From Candidatus Kapaibacteriota bacterium (GTDB taxonomy: Bacteria > Bacteroidota > Ignavibacteria > Kapaibacteriales > Kapaibacteriaceae): DNA of 64,000 nucleotides. The notes below the pieces were generated by a model. It had not been told where the DNA came from. It searched no databases and was given only the letters and a program-made list of their open reading frames with translations. The DNA is taken from positions 21,403-85,402 of the forward strand of contig JBKJNB010000037.1 in the NCBI GenBank assembly GCA_046595995.1, given 5' to 3'. The position numbers and the translations under genes were made by a program. Positions 4,111-43,761 of this stretch are shown in pieces (position 1 is the stretch's first letter; each line of letters begins with the position of its first letter).

Positions 4111-6956
4111 CGGCGGCAAAATACAAACCGTTGTACGGCCGACGTCGTTACACGCACGGCATACATTCCCACAGCAAGGCTGCGGACGTCGAGGTGGATA
4201 ACGTTATCTCCCTCGGTTACGAACACGTCAGATTCGAGCACCCTACGTCCCTGCATGTCGAATACAGCAACAGACCCACTCGAGGCCTCGACACTCGCAA
4301 CTGTAAACGACAGAAAGTCGTCTGCAGGATTCGGATATGGCACTGACACCGACATTTGAGCCGGCTGGCGATTGGTTAACCGCGATGCACGCGCAAGTGC
4401 AGAGTCGCGACTGAGATCCATCGACCACACCATGCGGAACGATCGAACACCGCCGGGCGGTATGGCCGATGTAAATCGCATACCAATCACAACTGCAATG
4501 TCACCTTGCAATGCGAACTGAATACCAGCACCTTGACGCATGAAGCCATCTTTAGCATCGATAGAAATTCCACCGTACGTGATGGCGTTGTTCATGCCAG
4601 CACAAATGGGCAGTGCATCGCTATGCGTCGAGGTTGTAAGACAAGCGACATAAGGTCCGCCTGCATTCGTGGACCACGCACCTTGTATACCCAGGTGACG
4701 TTGTGTATTGTATTCCACCAACTCTGTGCGATTCTTCACTGGCTGAGTGCCAAGATCCCAGTCGAGGAACCACGCAGCTACAACGTCGTGTAATGTCGAA
4801 TCGCTAATATTTTTTAATGTAATGTCCGATACATACACACCTGAATCACCCGAGGCAATGCGTACTACCTGTTCAACTTCGATTCCAATACGCAACGAGT
4901 CTGGCGCTTTGTCGTCTCGCACAATTCCACGTAGTGGGTCTGGACGTGTGAACTTCTTGATGGGAAGGAAGTGATCGTCGGTGCCACGTCCGGCACGAAC
5001 AGAACTCACCACGCGGCCGTCAGAGCCAATCATGAGACCACCCTCGTAGAGCTGCCCACACAACGATCTGAACGTTACGCCAGTACCCTGCGCCCTATCA
5101 ATGTCGACATTTCCAACACGCGTGTTGTCGCCAACAGAGAGCGTAAGTACGTCGTTCTGTAGAATTCTATATCCGGGCGATGGTGTTATGGCCGCCAACA
5201 CTTGCGTCGTTGCACCAGTGGCCGATTGAAGTTGCAGTCTTATGAACGAACTAGTGTCAGTGTCTTTCGTCACGAACAACGGCACCGATACACTGAATGT
5301 GTCGCCCTTTGCCAGTAACCTGCCTTCTGGTGTCTGCGGAATTCCAGCCTGATTCACACCGACTGTCAGTAAGGGTCGGAAAGGGGCCAGGTCTACCAAC
5401 GCCAATGCGGGCACCCAAGCGGCAAGCACGTTACGCAGCCGAAGTGTCGCATAAAGTGTATCACCAATCGTCCATCGCGTGTCGTCTGATGTCGTTGTAA
5501 CGACAAGTGTGTCGAGTTCTACTGAAGGCACGCTGTCCGGACTCACACTCACCGCAGCAAGTGCATCGAGTCTGCCACGTGGCAAGAGGGCAGGAGTTTT
5601 GTCATCGGGGATTGATGTCCACGGAGTCACCGCTACGGCCTCTCGCGCAATCGCGCAAGCTTCGATAGGCGAGAGCATGGGGTGCCGTGAACGAATGAGT
5701 CCGACAACACCACTTACAATCGGCGCAGCACCAGAAGTGCAGCAGAAGCCGCCATACGTACCGTCGTTCGACGTGGTCCATGTGCCCTGACCCGGCGCCA
5801 TTACGTCTACACCCGGTCCTAATGCAGTCATGCCAATGACACGGTCAAAGTCATCTGTAACACCAACGCCTAAAACACCTTTATACGATGCAGGAAAGAA
5901 TGGGGCAGCAGTGCCGTGATTCCCTGCCGCTGCAACAACGGCAACACCTCGCGCAATGGCGTATTGCACGACACTTTCGTCGATGCACGAACGGCTCTGA
6001 CTTCCCCACGAGCAGTTGATGACATCGATGCCGTTCACCGCACAGTAAATCATCGATTCATATCCGTAAACAATTCCACCAATGTTATCTGGCATGGTTT
6101 TCATCGGAACGAGCTTGCATTTATTTGCCACACCCGATATGCCAATGCCATTGTTAACGACAGCACCACAAATGCCTGCTACGCCGGTGCCGTGTCCCTC
6201 TCGCGGGTTATACGTATTGCCAGGTGCTGTGCTATCGTCTGCAGTGCAGAAGTTGTAACCATTGTAATCGTCGATGTACCCATTCGCATCGTCGTCGACG
6301 TTGTTATTTGGGATTTCTCGGTCGTTCACATAGATCGCGTCTTTTAAATCCTCATGCGTCTGCAGAATGCCAGAGTCGCTAATGCCAATCAAGACAGAGT
6401 CGCTGCCGTCCTCGACGTCCCAAGCCTCAAAGACTCGAATAAGCGGAAGCATCCTCTGTTCGGTGCGCAGAGGGTCATCAGGTTCGGACGTTTGTTGCGA
6501 TACGAAGTACGGCTCTGCAACTTCAACATCGCTGCAGCCTGGACGCAACCACGCACTCATCCGTTCGGGTGCAATAGACACATCGGCATACGACACGACA
6601 AACGTTCGCAACAGGTCATCCTCGATACGCATCACGTCGGCACGATGCACCGGAGATTCCTGTAGCATGGCATCGCTATCACGTTTCCATCGAAGTGACT
6701 GGTGAAGGGGCAGAAGGGGTCTAAGAAGTGTGAGGCCAAGGCGCTTGAGAATGGTTTCCGGCGATGATCCCTGCACGGCAGAAGGAGTAAGTCGGACCTT
6801 AAGCGTGCCCGACAACACGGGATTGAGTCTCGTTGGCGGATCTGCAGGAAGTATGCGTTGAGCAATGCAAGGGCTGACAGCGATGAATGCCAGCAGCATG
6901 AGAAGGCTTACCGGGAGAAGGCTTACCGGGAGAAGGTTTACAAAGCGTATCCTCAT
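4107..6956 (-). CDS. Secreted S8 (subtilisin-family) serine peptidase with T9SS C-terminal domain
   Basis: Catalytic triad motifs GISDSG (Asp), GHGTGVAG (His) and CCTSGAAP (Ser), plus oxyanion AAAGN. Ca-loop DDDANGYIDDYNGYNF. CTD runs PYPNPA...VFDMQGRRV...GMYAVRV. ATG 6956 overlaps the upstream TAA (TAATG). Confidence 0.92.
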   Translation of the reverse strand: MRIRFVNLLPVSLLPVSLLMLLAFIAVSPCIAQRILPADPPTRLNPVLSGTLKVRLTPSAVQGSSPETILKRLGLTLLRPLLPLHQSLRWKRDSDAMLQESPVHRADVMRIEDDLLRTFVVSYADVSIAPERMSAWLRPGCSDVEVAEPYFVSQQTSEPDDPLRTEQRMLPLIRVFEAWDVEDGSDSVLIGISDSGILQTHEDLKDAIYVNDREIPNNNVDDDANGYIDDYNGYNFCTADDSTAPGNTYNPREGHGTGVAGICGAVVNNGIGISGVANKCKLVPMKTMPDNIGGIVYGYESMIYCAVNGIDVINCSWGSQSRSCIDESVVQYAIARGVAVVAAAGNHGTAAPFFPASYKGVLGVGVTDDFDRVIGMTALGPGVDVMAPGQGTWTTSNDGTYGGFCCTSGAAPIVSGVVGLIRSRHPMLSPIEACAIAREAVAVTPWTSIPDDKTPALLPRGRLDALAAVSVSPDSVPSVELDTLVVTTTSDDTRWTIGDTLYATLRLRNVLAAWVPALALVDLAPFRPLLTVGVNQAGIPQTPEGRLLAKGDTFSVSVPLFVTKDTDTSSFIRLQLQSATGATTQVLAAITPSPGYRILQNDVLTLSVGDNTRVGNVDIDRAQGTGVTFRSLCGQLYEGGLMIGSDGRVVSSVRAGRGTDDHFLPIKKFTRPDPLRGIVRDDKAPDSLRIGIEVEQVVRIASGDSGVYVSDITLKNISDSTLHDVVAAWFLDWDLGTQPVKNRTELVEYNTQRHLGIQGAWSTNAGGPYVACLTTSTHSDALPICAGMNNAITYGGISIDAKDGFMRQGAGIQFALQGDIAVVIGMRFTSAIPPGGVRSFRMVWSMDLSRDSALARASRLTNRQPAQMSVSVPYPNPADDFLSFTVASVEASSGSVAVFDMQGRRVLESDVFVTEGDNVIHLDVRSLAVGMYAVRVTTSAVQRFVFCRR
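6901..6936. repeat. 15-bp tandem duplication (AGAAGGCTTACCGGG x2 plus partial) inside the S8 signal-peptide coding region
   Basis: Identical units at 6901-6915 and 6916-6930; encodes LLPVS-LLPVS-LL. Confidence 0.9.
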
Positions 6957-38920: not shown

Positions 38921-40004
38921 CAACAGGTATGCTTTAATCAGTTCATCGAGGTCGCCATTCATCACGGATTGCACGTCTGTGATTTTTGTCTCCGTGCGAT
39001 GGTCGTTTACCATCGTGTATGGCTGAAAGACATAGCTGCGAATTTGTGAGCCCCATTCAATGCGCTTCTTGGTGCCTTCGATGACGGCTTTTGCAGCATC
39101 TTCTTCTTCACGACGTTTTTGATAGAGGCGACTCTTCAGCATCTTCATCGCACGTTCGCGGTTTAAGAGCTGCGAGCGTTCTTGCTGACATGCAACGACG
39201 ATGCCACTAGGGATGTGGCGCAATCGAACGGCAGTTTCTACCTTGTTGACGTTCTGTCCACCCTTACCACCCGATCGGAACGTGTCCATTTCGACATCGG
39301 CCGGATTCACAACAATCTCAACATCGTCCTCGACCTCAGGATAAACAAATACCGACGCAAACGACGTGTGTCTGCGAGCGTTGGAGTCGTATGGACTGAT
39401 TCGTACGAGTCTGTGAACACCGTTTTCTGCTTTGAGGAATCCGTATGCAAATCGGCCGCGTATCTCGAGCGTGCCACTCTTGATACCCGCCATATCGCCC
39501 TCTTGCTCGTCTGCAAGAAAGACCTGGTAGTTGTTTTTCTCTGCCCACCGCGTGTACATGCGCATGAGCATCTCAGCCCAATCCTGCGCCTCTGTTCCAC
39601 CAGCACCTGCGTTAATCGTGAGGATGCAATTGCGATCATCGTCAACGCCAGAAAGAATCTTACGCAACTCAAGATCATCGACGCTTTTCTTGCAGCGGCC
39701 GAGCTCCAGAATGATGTCGGCTTCCATGCTATCATCTTCGACTTCCGAAGCCAAGTCAATCAGTGCCTGCACATCCTCAACTGCGCGCACTGCGCCTTCC
39801 CAGGTGCCAATCCAGTCCTTGCGGTCGGCGATCTCCTGCATAACCTTCTGTGCTGTTTGTTGACTATCCCAGAAGCCGGCGGCCTGGGAGAGCATCTCGC
39901 GCTCTGCTATCTCGTCGCGTTTACGATCGATGTCAAAGAAACCTCCGAAGTTGCTCTACACGTTCACGGAGTTCACTCAGTTGCTGTTGTTGGGGGTCAA
40001 ACAT
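38903..40004 (-). CDS. prfB: Peptide chain release factor 2 with programmed +1 frameshift (about 366 aa)
   Basis: ATG 40004 gives [23 protein letters not shown], then CTT-TGA-C, then [14 protein letters not shown] in the +1 frame. Also GAGGTEA, SPY (RF2-type tripeptide) and GGQ. Confidence 0.97.
39932..39946 (-). other. RF2 +1 frameshift cassette (internal SD GGAGG, 3 nt, CTT TGA C)
   Basis: The - strand reads CGGAGGTTTCTTTGAC; the slippery heptamer is at 39938-39932. Confidence 0.95.
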
Positions 40005-40008
40005 GGTA

Positions 40009-40041
40009 CAAAGATACCAAGCTTGCAGAAAGCTTCTCAAA
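40009..40041 (-). promoter_or_regulatory. Bacteroidota-type sigma-A promoter of prfB: TTTG (40041-38), N21, TATCTTTG (40016-09), 4 nt before the ATG
   Basis: Both elements match the -33/-7 consensus with canonical spacing. Confidence 0.7.
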
Positions 40042-40045
40042 CTGC

Positions 40046-41176
40046 TTAGACAAAGGTGCGACGAATCCACGCGGCAAGAAATGGGTCTTCCACGTGATAG
40101 CCGTCCTGGTCACGGTAGATGAGTTCCTTCTCAAGAAGGGATTCAAGTGCACGACGAACAGTACTTATCGAACCGAGACGGTTGCGTTCGATAAACGATG
40201 TGCCCGATGGTTCGGCCACCACACGGTCTTTTGCGACTGCAGACAACACACTCCACTGCTGATCGGTGATCATCGATCGAAAGCCATAGTAAAGGTGTTC
40301 CTGTTCACCGAGGACCTCCCCAAACACAGCGTCTGCAGCTTCCACTTCGATCCGCGCCGTACCCTTTGCATACAAGCGGTTGCATAACTGCTGTACATGG
40401 AACGTCCGTCTCTCTGCAAGTTCTTGTACGCGCAATGACGCGGCGGACGTGATCCGGCGTCGGCGCTTCGCAAACTGACCGATGATGAAGTCGGAGTACA
40501 CCTGCGTGTCTATTGGACCGAGCATCATATGCTCTGTGCTTTGATAAAACGGCCGTGCGTGATCGGAGAACATCAGGGTCATTAAATCGCGGTTGCTACC
40601 CGCGAATAAAAATCGAGTGTTCTTCATCCGTTGTATGTGCGAACGTAGGAGTTCTTCTACGTTCCCTTCAGCGTATGAGGCCACCTGCTGGAATTCATCA
40701 AATGCAACAATTACGCGCTTATCATATGCCTCGAGGTATCGAAATACGTCTGCTAATTGGTCCGCATTCCCACTTACCGCAGAGGATGACGTCGCTTGCA
40801 GTTCAACGGAAGGCATTCCATCGGCGCCAATTTTAATTGTGCCACTAACCAAGCGTGCAAAGTCGCGCAGGATATCGGCCATCTTCTTGCCACGCGAATG
40901 CAGGTGCCGTGCAACAGCCGATGCAAGAGCGCCCGTCAAGCCCGCTACGTCTGTTGTGGGATGCAGGTCTACGTAGAGACATCCAGCGCGCTTCCGAACC
41001 TTGTTAAAAAGATGATGGATGAGCGCAGACTTGCCCATCCTGCGCAATGCTATAAGGGTAACGTTCCAGTCGCCAAGCAATGCACGCTCTAGTCGCGCAA
41101 GCTCAGCGTCGCGGTCGCAGAACGTTTCTGGATCATACCCCTGTACGGGAAACGGATTGGTCTCTTGTACTGCCAT
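40046..41176 (-). CDS. AAA+/'archaeal ATPase' family protein with probable C-terminal winged helix
   Basis: NPF...FCDRDAEL, Walker A ALRRMGKS, Walker B AFDEFQ, FAGS, and C-terminal STVRRALESLLEKELIY...EDPFLAAW. ATG 41176 preferred. Confidence 0.85.
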   Translation of the reverse strand: MAVQETNPFPVQGYDPETFCDRDAELARLERALLGDWNVTLIALRRMGKSALIHHLFNKVRKRAGCLYVDLHPTTDVAGLTGALASAVARHLHSRGKKMADILRDFARLVSGTIKIGADGMPSVELQATSSSAVSGNADQLADVFRYLEAYDKRVIVAFDEFQQVASYAEGNVEELLRSHIQRMKNTRFLFAGSNRDLMTLMFSDHARPFYQSTEHMMLGPIDTQVYSDFIIGQFAKRRRRITSAASLRVQELAERRTFHVQQLCNRLYAKGTARIEVEAADAVFGEVLGEQEHLYYGFRSMITDQQWSVLSAVAKDRVVAEPSGTSFIERNRLGSISTVRRALESLLEKELIYRDQDGYHVEDPFLAAWIRRTFV

Positions 41177-41184
41177 TCTCGAAG

Positions 41185-41243
41185 TTACGCAAAATGCGTT
41201 GCGCAAAATGCGTAACGCAAAATGCGTAACGCAAAATGCGTTA
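41185..41243. repeat. Four tandem 14-bp units, each with the palindromic core CGCA-AAA-TGCG
   Basis: CGCAAAATGCG at 41188, 41202, 41216 and 41230 (exact 14-bp period). The copy at 41227-41243 is a perfect 7-bp inverted repeat, TAACGCA-AAA-TGCGTTA. Confidence 0.95.
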
Positions 41244-41253
41244 TCGCAGTAAC

Positions 41254-43761
41254 TCAGAGTAATGGGCTCGAAACGGTAATCGACCAGCCGAACGTTCCGC
41301 GCGGAGTGGCAACGGGTCCGACGGGCCACAGTGCATCGAAGCGCAGGAAGAGGAAATCGCTGATGAACGTAGGTATTCTGCTAACTGCGAAGCCAGCCTC
41401 TGTATACCACCCATGGGTTGAATCGTAGACACGTCCGGGCACAACGGCCTGCGCTCGTTGCACCATATTCAGGGCGCTGAATTTTCCTATGAGATCGATT
41501 CCTCTGCCATTGAAAGTCGGAAGGCCAATGGCCCGCCACCACATATCGGAGAAGTTGTGTTCGGCATGCAAGGCCACATACTCGGTACCTGCGTATGCAT
41601 TCACCGGTACAGTCGCGAGGTCTGTGGTCGATCCCATCAGAAAGAACCGCCTCATCGATGGGAACTGATACTGGCGTGGCGTCGCGTCTACAGCACGCCC
41701 CCCTTTCACATCAAGCGCAAGCTCCATGGGATGATACCCCGTGGCAAACGTGGGCAACACTGCACCTAGATGAACCTCGATATTCGAGAAGTTCTGGGAA
41801 GTAATTACCTCTTGACCATATAGCATCGATACTGTACCAAAGACGGGCCATGCAGTGCCGAGTATGTTATCGACCAACGTTGGCTGCCCTACACTAATCG
41901 AAGCGTGAACCGTGCGATAGGCGCCTGCGTGCGCAGTGACTGGAGTACGATTGATGTCAGTTATCACTGGCATGTTGATATGACGTGCTTCGGCGAATAG
42001 TGCGCCGATGTTGAAACGACCAACGGTGAGTCGGGCACCGACGTCAAAGCCATCACGTCGGTAGTAGTCCAAGTTGTCTGCAAACAGCAGGTCGGTGAAG
42101 TCGAATGTTTCAAATCGTTTCAGAATCGTTCGAGGGCTCTGCATTGTTGTCATGATTGAGAACACCTTGCCGGTTGCATCAAGCTGCAGACCCGGCTCAC
42201 GCAAGACCTTAACGTTCATACCTACGCTGCCTGCTCGTGTCAACCGATCGGTAACTGTGTCCTTTCCACCGAGAGACCCCATAACCTTCAAGGTGGCGAA
42301 CGTGGTGGCTGCGATGAGTTCTCCACCGTACATCACACCAGTAATGGTGGAGCGGTCAATGACAGGCGATAACCCGAAGCCCACATTGCCAATGCTCGGC
42401 AGATGAATGAGACCAACAGTTGGAGCAGGGTCGATGCGCTTGCCGGCGGAGTCGTGCGGTGGGCCAATGCTGTCGGCTCGTCTGTATATCTCGCGTTCTT
42501 CTTCACTGGGTTCGGCAAACGCGTGTGCTTCCCAGAACTCAGATTTGGCCGAGTCTGCGTCGGGTGCAACAGTAATGCGTTTGCCCTTTATATCAACGCC
42601 AAGGCTCACAGAATTATCGGTGATATCGACTGCGCTAGTTGTCTTTGACTTTGAAGGGGTCTTACCGATGGAATCGGGAAGGGGCACGTTGACCTGGACA
42701 TCGGTAGCGTATGTCTGAACTGCAAAGCGACCTTCGAACTCCATTATGCCCTTGATGATAGCTACGTTCGCGCCAGCCGTCGCGAGCTGAAATGCCGGTA
42801 CCCAGATACTGTCGTCATACCGTTCGTATCGCTGTTCGAATCGAAGTTCGCGTAGGAATGGGAAAGCCGTTTCGTCCGTGGGTGCGAACGCAGCAGCAAT
42901 CAGCTGATAGGTGCCTTCGACAATACTAAGTGTGCCTTCGAAGCCGGGGAAGATTCGCGACTTGGGTTCGAAGGACAATTCATAAATAAGTTTATCACCG
43001 AGCATTTTCTTGCCGGTAATCGTGTACTTGTACTCATCCAACGCGTCGCGCCCAAGTGGAGTAACGAGTCGTGTCTTGATGAGCGTTATTTCGTCTTCTG
43101 TGAAATCGAAGAACTCGTCGAATACTGCAAGGTTCTCGGCAGGCAGAATGTTCTTCGTCTGACGTCGCTGCACGATGACGACTTCTTTTACCGGATTAGG
43201 GCGTCGTCGCTCATAGACTTTCGAGAAGGTTTCTGTAATCGAATTCGGTGAAATGTTCTGACCGTCGAGTGCTGTGCCTCCGATATCGACTCTCATCTTG
43301 CTATACAGCGTACTAACGAGCGTGTTGATTCGCGCGGCATTGATTTCTTTGCGCACGATTGCAAGGCGAATGAGTTCTTCCGAAGTCATGCCGGCTGTTA
43401 CGGTTATGGTGGTTGACGTAACGTCGGAGGGCATAAGCGCGATATGCATGGCATCGCTGTTATCGGGGATGTCGAGCGTTCGTTCAGCATACCCGATGCT
43501 TCGGACCGTTAGCACCTTGTGTGTGACTTCGATTGGAAGCCGAAACCGACCACTAGTACGGGTATGCGTTCCTCGCTTCGTATTGCGTACGAAGACAGAT
43601 GCGGCAGATAATGGTTGACCCGTGAGGGAGTCTACGACGACTCCGGAAAGAACTCTGGCCTGTTGCGCGCTCACAGCAGGCACAACACCAAAGAGGGCAA
43701 CGAACACGAGCGCGCGGAGAAGAAAAACAACGAGTGATTGAGCGGAAGGGGGTCTTGTCAT
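41254..43761 (-). CDS. Outer-membrane protein with N-terminal carboxypeptidase-regulatory-like domain and DUF5686-like region
   Basis: Signal peptide, LSGVVVDSLTGQPLSAASV...GRFRL...SIGY, 'EELIRLAIVRKEIN', YKYTITG and C-terminal barrel strands. Confidence 0.7.
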   Translation of the reverse strand: MTRPPSAQSLVVFLLRALVFVALFGVVPAVSAQQARVLSGVVVDSLTGQPLSAASVFVRNTKRGTHTRTSGRFRLPIEVTHKVLTVRSIGYAERTLDIPDNSDAMHIALMPSDVTSTTITVTAGMTSEELIRLAIVRKEINAARINTLVSTLYSKMRVDIGGTALDGQNISPNSITETFSKVYERRRPNPVKEVVIVQRRQTKNILPAENLAVFDEFFDFTEDEITLIKTRLVTPLGRDALDEYKYTITGKKMLGDKLIYELSFEPKSRIFPGFEGTLSIVEGTYQLIAAAFAPTDETAFPFLRELRFEQRYERYDDSIWVPAFQLATAGANVAIIKGIMEFEGRFAVQTYATDVQVNVPLPDSIGKTPSKSKTTSAVDITDNSVSLGVDIKGKRITVAPDADSAKSEFWEAHAFAEPSEEEREIYRRADSIGPPHDSAGKRIDPAPTVGLIHLPSIGNVGFGLSPVIDRSTITGVMYGGELIAATTFATLKVMGSLGGKDTVTDRLTRAGSVGMNVKVLREPGLQLDATGKVFSIMTTMQSPRTILKRFETFDFTDLLFADNLDYYRRDGFDVGARLTVGRFNIGALFAEARHINMPVITDINRTPVTAHAGAYRTVHASISVGQPTLVDNILGTAWPVFGTVSMLYGQEVITSQNFSNIEVHLGAVLPTFATGYHPMELALDVKGGRAVDATPRQYQFPSMRRFFLMGSTTDLATVPVNAYAGTEYVALHAEHNFSDMWWRAIGLPTFNGRGIDLIGKFSALNMVQRAQAVVPGRVYDSTHGWYTEAGFAVSRIPTFISDFLFLRFDALWPVGPVATPRGTFGWSITVSSPLL

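Follow-up and report, generated by a model that had tools for sequence, protein, structure and literature searches.

Why should a bacterial ATPase gene be headed by four exactly phased palindromes? The question is raised by a locus within 64,000 nucleotides of DNA from Candidatus Kapaibacteriota bacterium (contig JBKJNB010000037.1, positions 21,403 to 85,402; this whole stretch is the window), where a gene for an AAA+ ATPase lies between a gene for a DUF5686 protein and prfB, and an array of four 14-bp units stands directly before its start codon. Judged by comparison of related sequences, the array is probably the cognate operator of the ATPase itself, to which the protein would bind cooperatively and in a nucleotide-dependent manner in order to regulate its own gene. 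The ATPase most likely represents a large family, centred on the Bacteroidota and as yet undescribed, of DNA binders that are driven by ATP and regulate themselves.

The array was characterized first at the window locus (coordinates of all features are collected in Table 1). The ATPase gene and the DUF5686 gene are on the same strand and exactly 77 bp apart, and the array lies in this gap. Each unit is a 5-3-5 palindrome with the core ACGCA-AAA-TGCGT on the forward strand and ACGCA-TTT-TGCGT on the gene strand; three of the four are perfect (ACGCAAAATGCGT) and one reads GCGCAAAATGCGT. Tandem Repeats Finder reported 4.6 copies with a period of 14 over 41184-41248 (score 100). The ATG of the ATPase is separated from the nearest core by 10 nt, while the stop codon of the DUF5686 gene is 12 nt from the first unit, and read-through transcription from that gene into the array is possible. 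A first-pass annotation of the window had described four units of exact 14-bp period that end shortly before the ATG and had not noticed the motif elsewhere in the window. Coordinates and repeat search agree with this description, and outside the array the window contains only three matches to the unit, each with two mismatches, which is the level expected by chance. The array is unique in its own genome: no second exact copy of the unit was found in the whole 2.98 Mb, where the ATPase gene is likewise present as a single copy. ACGCA-N3-TGCGT with any spacer occurs at nine other isolated genomic sites, compared with seven for a reversed-pattern control, and a genome-wide motif scan found no regulon.

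Orthologs of the ATPase allow the array to be followed through evolution. Those with 94, 88 and 86% identity adjoin prfB, and those with 53 and 49% identity show the same DUF5686...ATPase...prfB synteny. All five carry ACGCA-N3-TGCGT units in 14-bp phase upstream of the gene, with four units in L015, about three degenerate units in L017, and two units in L018, where AACGCAATGTGCGT and CACGCACATTGCGT together form a 33-nt perfect palindrome in which the spacer has changed (ATG/CAT) and the half-sites have been retained. In an alignment of the upstream regions, conservation was confined to the array and to the stretch where the coding sequence of the upstream gene ends, the flanking non-coding DNA being unalignable. 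The CGCA/TGCG core is intact at 16 of 16 sites in the clade of the window protein and at 52 of 54 sites over three clades, in which successive sites are spaced by 14 bp in 39 of 40 cases. These observations bear on the proposal that the array is a neutral, slippage-prone minisatellite without function, which would account for the variation of copy number between close relatives and for the several metagenome contigs that break inside the array. The core positions are, however, invariant across orthologs at 49% identity and across three clades at about 35%, and the array is restricted to the ATPase upstream region across the family; a functionless minisatellite is barely credible and, because of the core conservation, effectively refuted.

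The same orthologs do not bear out the earlier view that the module is an inserted cassette, since the DUF5686...prfB synteny is the same in orthologs down to 49% identity, and a genome of the same genus without the ATPase resembles a deletion from which the array was spared. Three metagenome contigs break off at the array or within it (L014 1-60, L016 1-35 and L019 1-10), which fits assembly-graph breaks arising from unit numbers that vary within populations.

Phased arrays are also a property of the wider family. Of the loci analysed, 80, with 31-38% identity, are from named genomes (Prevotellaceae, Prolixibacteraceae, Muribaculaceae, Paludibacteraceae, Cytophagales and other groups), and four are from relatives. 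At almost all of the family loci fetched, a phased repeat or palindrome array lies directly upstream of the ATG. Scoring of the 150-nt upstream regions, made non-redundant (n = 81), gave a tandem score of at least 10 for 59%, compared with 2% of dinucleotide shuffles (n = 1620) and 25% of other intergenic regions from the same loci (n = 44); the search for arrays upstream of homologs that had been proposed as a check was therefore positive. Periods of 14 bp (25 loci), 15 bp (9), 28 bp (5) and 27 bp (4) were recorded. A separate rescan outside the ATPase upstream regions returned mostly 7-bp microsatellites, together with the arrays of two further paralogs or copies.

The motifs themselves differ among clades. 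ACGCA-N3-TGCGT reappears in L010 and in two Prevotellaceae clades; in one of these, from termite gut, close relatives have 3, 7 and 12 units. Other clades carry ACGTA or ACGAA types, ATACA-N3-TGTAT, ATAATTAT (with a 15-bp period), TATAG-N5-CTATA, CACTATCTA palindromes or GTAACGTAAAGTTT direct repeats, and classes made of direct, non-palindromic repeats thus exist as well (L042, class C). When eight motif classes were mapped onto a maximum-likelihood protein tree, 16 changes were counted, compared with 56.8 for shuffled labels. ACGCA types sit on both sides of this tree, and the ACGCA motif may therefore be ancestral. At about 25% identity, homologs from Arcobacter, Marinomonas and Geobacter also have a palindrome or two at the promoter, and no obvious upstream repeat was seen for a Ralstonia homolog. 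With a cut-off of E <= 1e-30 a profile search recovered 2,115 clusters of 50% identity, and with 1e-10 it recovered 7,029; the only annotation of the family is 'ATP-binding protein'. No conserved partner gene was found across 90 loci. Among close relatives, the near-identical proteins of L033 and L037 (tree branch lengths 0.015 and 0.032) share a three-unit array together with its flanks; the spacer is AAAA in one and TTTT in the other, so that the interior of the array is flipped between them.

The position of the arrays relative to the promoter could be read in the Bacteroidales from the -7 box, TAnnTTTG. In one layout (17 loci) the box lies 0-10 bp upstream of the array, which then covers the start site and the early transcript; in a second layout (16 loci) it lies 13-25 bp downstream, and the array covers the -33 region. 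At a further 11 loci the box is inside the array or at its edge. With either layout, RNA polymerase could be occluded. An array that precedes the -7 box stays outside the transcript and must therefore act as DNA at such loci, a point that weighs against a different account of the window array, namely that it acts as RNA, with stacked hairpins that attenuate read-through from the DUF5686 gene or mask the start codon. The geometry of the window locus would allow this: the upstream gene is on the same strand only 77 bp away with no recognizable promoter box, the array ends 10 nt before the ATG, and a 111-nt region folds at -40.3 kcal/mol (z = -4.9) with an outer stem that pairs the ATG region. 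Yet a strong fold score is expected of any palindromic array, the outer stem is not obviously retained in L015, and no Rfam match was obtained at the array. Moreover, some motif classes are direct repeats or AT-rich and have little hairpin potential, and at 16 homolog loci the array stands upstream of the -7 box, untranscribed. We regard an RNA function as very unlikely at the window locus, and an RNA-hairpin role for the family as a whole is unlikely.

Genomes with several paralogs were analysed as well (loci L110-L138). Two rumen genomes hold 15 paralogs (G041, a member of the Bacteroidales and the source of L064) and 10 paralogs (G042, the source of L074), and Bacteroides timonensis (G043) holds four. 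In a given genome the arrays beside the -7 boxes differ between nearly all paralogs. L111 and L114, which are recent duplicates, have the same array, and orthologs between G041 and G042 have motifs in common. Private arrays of this kind would be expected if selection acts against cross-talk and every protein has a site of its own to read. The first-pass annotation had proposed a self-contained module of an ATPase with its operator or iterons; the arrays of homologs are indeed phased, co-vary with clade and differ between paralogs, which supports this core proposal, and the first-pass interpretation as a whole is supported in part.

The protein possesses both a Walker A and a Walker B motif, as well as a core with a lid, and all of its top Foldseek matches are AAA+ proteins, which places it in the AAA+ class. 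R45, G48, K49, D160 and E161 are invariant in 57 homologs, as is an N-terminal NPF...YFCDR motif, in keeping with the intact Walker motifs noted at the outset. An AlphaFold2 model based on the 57 homologs (pLDDT 90, pTM 0.87) comprises an AAA+ core, into which a beta-hairpin is inserted around residues 112-126, a lid of helices (224-300) and, at residues 305-376, a winged helix, the last with helices at 305-317, 326-331 and 337-349 followed by wing strands at 353-362. Foldseek placed the archaeal structures 2qen and 2fna first (E values of 1e-14 and 1e-13, TM about 0.67-0.70), then the Orc1/Cdc6-origin DNA complexes 2qby and 2v1u, and then ORC, RuvB and clamp loaders. The Orc1/Cdc6 matches had E values of 1e-11 to 1e-9 with TM-scores of only about 0.5, and the winged helix aligns with the winged-helix domains of Orc1/Cdc6. 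In the model, then, the fold is Orc1/Cdc6-like and nearest to 2qen and 2fna.

Sequence searches gave weaker relationships. The match to PF01637 (ATPase_2) over residues 19-195 scored 30.4 bits (E 4.4e-07), under the gathering threshold of 33.2, and precomputed PF01637 matches are present on many homologs; the ATPase thus appears to be a relative of PF01637 that lies outside the family by the curated cut-off. PF13173 (AAA_14) scored 31.7 bits (gathering 27), yet only profile positions 50-103 of 129 were matched, and there were further weak Pfam matches to AAA_22 and AAA_16. A sequence search of the PDB returned weak matches only, to 2qen and 2fna. Pfam gave no match to DUF4143, to DUF234 (PF03008) or to a nuclease domain, and the C-terminus is modelled as lid and winged helix only. 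Model, Pfam and Foldseek therefore agree with the initial description of an Orc1/Cdc6-like AAA+ protein with a C-terminal winged helix-turn-helix and no nuclease. No match for the ATPase was found in NCBIfam or PHROG, nor to the Orc/Cdc6 family in Pfam or NCBIfam, and no C-terminal sensor repeat domain of the STAND type was found, the protein ending with the winged helix at residue 376. PADLOC yielded weak partial matches (PDC-S27, E 3e-07, profile positions 6-178 of 484; PDC-S01, E 2e-04 and 3e-03) and no full-length match to a defence-system model.

An Orc1/Cdc6-like fold beside repeats invites the further explanation that gene and array form an initiator-iteron or centromere-like module, a relic or an active replicon in which the ATPase nucleates on the repeats to melt DNA, load onto it or segregate it. 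The best characterized fold matches are the Orc1/Cdc6-origin DNA complexes, the repeats adjoin the gene in a paralog-specific pairing that resembles archaeal orc-ORB pairs, and close relatives differ in copy number (3, 7 and 12). Against this, the gene lies on the chromosome and keeps its synteny across deep divergence, arrays overlap promoters, there is no helicase or partner gene, and some relatives have 10-15 paralogs per genome. No GC-skew switch was seen at the site in the 64-kb window, where skew is weak overall. Only two phage records match the family, and most plasmid matches are on records of at least 100 kb, including Ralstonia megaplasmids. A replication or partition module is therefore highly improbable.

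In the predicted recognition helix, residues 340-342 differ between motif classes: the helix reads STVRRAL in the window protein, SSVNRAL or SSVQRAL in the other ACGCA clades, and SSVKSGI, SSVQSAL, SAVQYAA or ANSQRLL in other motif classes. All 15 loci with at least two strict ACGCA-N3-TGCGT sites have R342 (three clades), and none of the 58 loci lacking R has such sites. In an independent set of paralogs, the motifs that accompany R342 were ACACA-TTT-TGTGT and TTGCA-TAA-TGCAA, but also CCTA-AAA-TAGG. A rule by which R342 goes with a CA-N3-TG core was accordingly dropped: it holds in the first set and in only two of the three R342 motif groups of the paralog set. Per-column mutual information between residue and motif class was dominated by phylogeny and did not single out the helix. 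The link between R342 and the motif is suggestive, a hint and no code.

On the operator reading, the C-terminal winged helix would read the CGCA/TGCG half-sites, and the AAA+ domains would join neighbouring protomers in a nucleotide-dependent manner. Cooperative filling of the phased sites would then stop transcription from entering the 5' region of the gene or starting there, and the resulting autorepression would be switch-like, with ATP/ADP state and the number of units to tune it. The module is self-contained, with no conserved partner gene and no other target site in its own genome. What we infer is that the ATPase binds the array, that it does so cooperatively and in dependence on ATP, in which sense it regulates, and how the cell benefits. 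A more far-reaching version, which we hold to be distinctly unlikely, sees the proteins as bacterial counterparts of archaeal Orc1/Cdc6-ORB pairs: an ATP-bound helical oligomer on a private array would remodel or melt DNA, and a genome would hold up to 15 orthogonal, self-addressed nucleoprotein switches. The geometry would be that three 14-bp units make 42 bp, or four helical turns. Beyond autorepression, such switches could provide an energy-charge-gated bistable memory, a platform for loading or excluding machinery, or a sensor in which foreign DNA titrates the protein off the array.

Several observations weigh against an operator dedicated to the ATPase. No TAnnTTTG box is recognizable upstream of the ATPase in the window clade; because no box was found, transcription of the DUF5686 gene may instead run on into the ATPase gene, and the array would then be a roadblock. 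R342 is found with other motifs too, including other N3-spaced palindromes, and neither the R342 association nor the tree correlation is phylogenetically independent, since gene and upstream region are co-inherited. In G001, a genome of the same genus with no ATPase homolog anywhere, the DUF5686 gene (73% identical) and prfB (96%) are adjacent, and between them lies TTACGCATTTTGCGTAACGCATTTTGCGCAACGCATTTTGCGCAACGCATTTTGTGCA (L101 1320-1375), a four-unit array that runs into the prfB -7 box TATCTTTG. An array can thus persist, and perhaps function, without the ATPase protein. Finally, pairs of the CCTAAAATAGG motif that belongs to one paralog, spaced by 14 bp and with unchanged flanks, were seen at three further places (L139 about 1988-2012; L140 2001-2025; L141 2018-2042): about 100 nt upstream of a Schlafen-AlbA_2/HATPase_c_4/winged helix-turn-helix gene, in the divergent region beside a gene for a 461-amino-acid PF01637 protein, and about 90 nt past the paralog's own gene. 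With two-unit copies at the promoters of other gene families, a strict 'self only' rule fails for some members. The extra copies may be small regulons that link orphan 'ATP-binding protein' families, or duplicated promoter cassettes.

The last two cases would also be accounted for if the array were a promoter or regulatory element independent of the ATPase, used by another factor or supplying a -33-like TTTG, and associated with the gene through an inherited promoter cassette. In G001 the array that remains without the ATPase places a TTTG 21 nt upstream of the prfB -7 box, and the CCTAAAATAGG array recurs with unchanged flanks at the Schlafen-AlbA_2/HATPase_c_4 and PF01637 genes. The motifs, however, differ among the 15 paralogs of one genome, so a common external factor cannot read all of the arrays, and they track both protein clade and recognition helix. 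The window array, moreover, has no second copy in its own genome, one of the four G001 units has lost its core to a G-to-T change, compared with 52 of 54 cores kept beside intact genes, and the extra copies are equally explained as small ATPase regulons. An element that is independent of the ATPase is for these reasons unlikely.

The G001 locus can be accommodated by the operator reading as well. More distant orthologs have the gene in the same synteny, which argues that the state of G001 reflects loss of the open reading frame with the operator left behind. The 21-nt distance from the array TTTG to the -7 box is the spacing of the window's own prfB pair and may explain why the array was retained; from this arrangement, the left-over operator seems to have been taken over by the essential gene prfB as its -33 element. 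Two ATPase-less relatives (G007 and G003) have no array at prfB. In the window, prfB had been noted to keep its own full promoter, and a promoter-like pair, TTTG-N21-TATCTTTG, is indeed present in the 41-nt gap downstream of the ATPase; prfB is thus probably expressed independently of the ATPase. The TAnnTTTG box at prfB and the DUF5686 synteny agree with a place of the window genome in the Bacteroidota, taken broadly.

Table 1. Features of the ATPase locus (window positions)
Feature	Coordinates	Strand	Basis and remarks
ATPase coding sequence (P0001), 376 aa, stop included	40046..41176	-	ATG 41176, TAA 40048-40046; translation
Array, four palindromic units, 14-bp period, proposed cognate operator	41187..41241	no strand	Repeat search, conservation
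Array units	41187-41199, 41201-41213, 41215-41227, 41229-41241		Exact 14-bp period
Walker A / P-loop (A43-L-R-R-M-G-K-S50)	41027..41050	-	Sequence; R45, G48, K49 invariant
Walker B (residues 155-161, ...VAFDE)	40694..40714	-	D160, E161 invariant; strand E155-160 in model
C-terminal winged helix-turn-helix (residues 305-376)	40049..40264	-	AlphaFold2 model, Foldseek
Predicted recognition helix (residues 337-349, STVRRALESLLEK)	40130..40168	-	AlphaFold2 model; residues 340-342 variable with motif class
Upstream gene, 835 aa, CarboxypepD_reg + DUF5686	41254..43761	-	TGA 41256-41254; Pfam, syntenic in L017, L018, G001
prfB promoter-like pair, TTTG (40041-40038) - 21 nt - TATCTTTG (40016-40009)	40009..40041	-	In 41-nt gap downstream of ATPase

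A longer reading frame for the ATPase, a 427-amino-acid variant from a GTG at 41329, was rejected: it overlaps the upstream gene, and the orthologs all begin at the conserved ATG. The ATG of prfB (40004-40002) is only 4 nt after the -7-like box TATCTTTG, and on this ground the prfB mRNA is suggested to be leaderless or nearly so. Within prfB, GGAGG stands ahead of the +1 frameshift site CTT TGA C (window 39932-39950, minus strand). Arrays were also seen in other settings. The upstream array of the L100 gene (TATAGAAATCCTAT twice) is repeated from 3 nt past the ATPase stop codon (4164-4198), so that the gene is bracketed by arrays. A gene for an AAA_14 + DUF4143 protein (L141 530-600) has upstream palindromes of its own, ATTGCAC...TGCAAT and TTGCAC-N7-GTGCAA, and self-addressed sites may be common to several orphan ATPase families.

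If each member of the family reads a private 14-bp-phased array, a concrete and testable activity could be assigned to a whole class of orphan ATPases, and bacteria would have an Orc1/Cdc6-like DNA-reading ATPase outside replication. Nature would also have supplied, in this family, a library of mutually orthogonal proteins and operators in which a nucleotide switch is built in and the number of sites can be tuned; the pairs of recognition helix and motif make a specificity code directly testable. A literature search returned no account of the family's function or of the arrays, and none of operator arrays for PF01637 proteins; it found PF01637 and DUF234 only in fold surveys, and SSO1545 only as the modelling template for IniR.

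Among known proteins, those of PF01637/COG1672 (SSO1545, 2fna; PAB2304, 2qen) resemble the window ATPase in weak sequence similarity, in length and in the layout of AAA+ domain and winged helix, and are likewise uncharacterized; for COG1672 a DUF234 module of the PD-(D/E)XK type is listed (PMC3424549). Unlike COG1672, the window ATPase has no DUF234 and has the conserved N-terminal NPF...YFCDR motif. STAND factors such as MalT and IniR are ATP-dependent, oligomerizing DNA-binding regulators, a mode of action that the window protein may share. MalT is far larger than the 376-residue ATPase. IniR, a STAND regulator of 818 amino acids, has an ATPase domain that was modelled on SSO1545 (PMC5760070). 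In contrast to the window protein, which has no sensor domain, the STAND factors are much larger and carry ligand-sensor repeat domains and a LuxR-type helix-turn-helix.

Archaeal Orc1/Cdc6 paralogs are paired with their own ORB repeats beside the gene. With Orc1/Cdc6 and its ORB or mini-ORB sites (2qby, 2v1u) the window ATPase shares the AAA+ base, the lid and the C-terminal winged helix, and in both the repeats adjoin the gene. It differs in lacking membership of the sequence family and in its short, phased 14-15-bp units that overlap the gene's promoter; its family reaches 15 paralogs in one bacterial genome, and neither a skew switch nor a replication partner accompanies it. Iteron Rep proteins (pSC101 RepA, P1 RepA, R6K pi) bind phased repeats next to rep through winged helices, with promoter overlap, autorepression and a variable number of repeats. 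The window family likewise has phased direct or inverted repeats beside the gene in variable number. Rep proteins, however, have a WH1-WH2 architecture and no AAA+ ATPase, and their iterons are 17-22 bp long, whereas the window family is AAA+, chromosomal and rare on small plasmids. Cooperative filling of short-repeat arrays is known from MetJ (8-bp metboxes), omega (7-bp heptads) and ParR (parC), which are small ribbon-helix-helix proteins without a nucleotide switch. The sites of the window family resemble theirs in being head-to-tail arrays of 2-12 short units at a promoter, in either orientation; the putative reader here is, in contrast, a 376-residue AAA+ ATPase with a winged helix.

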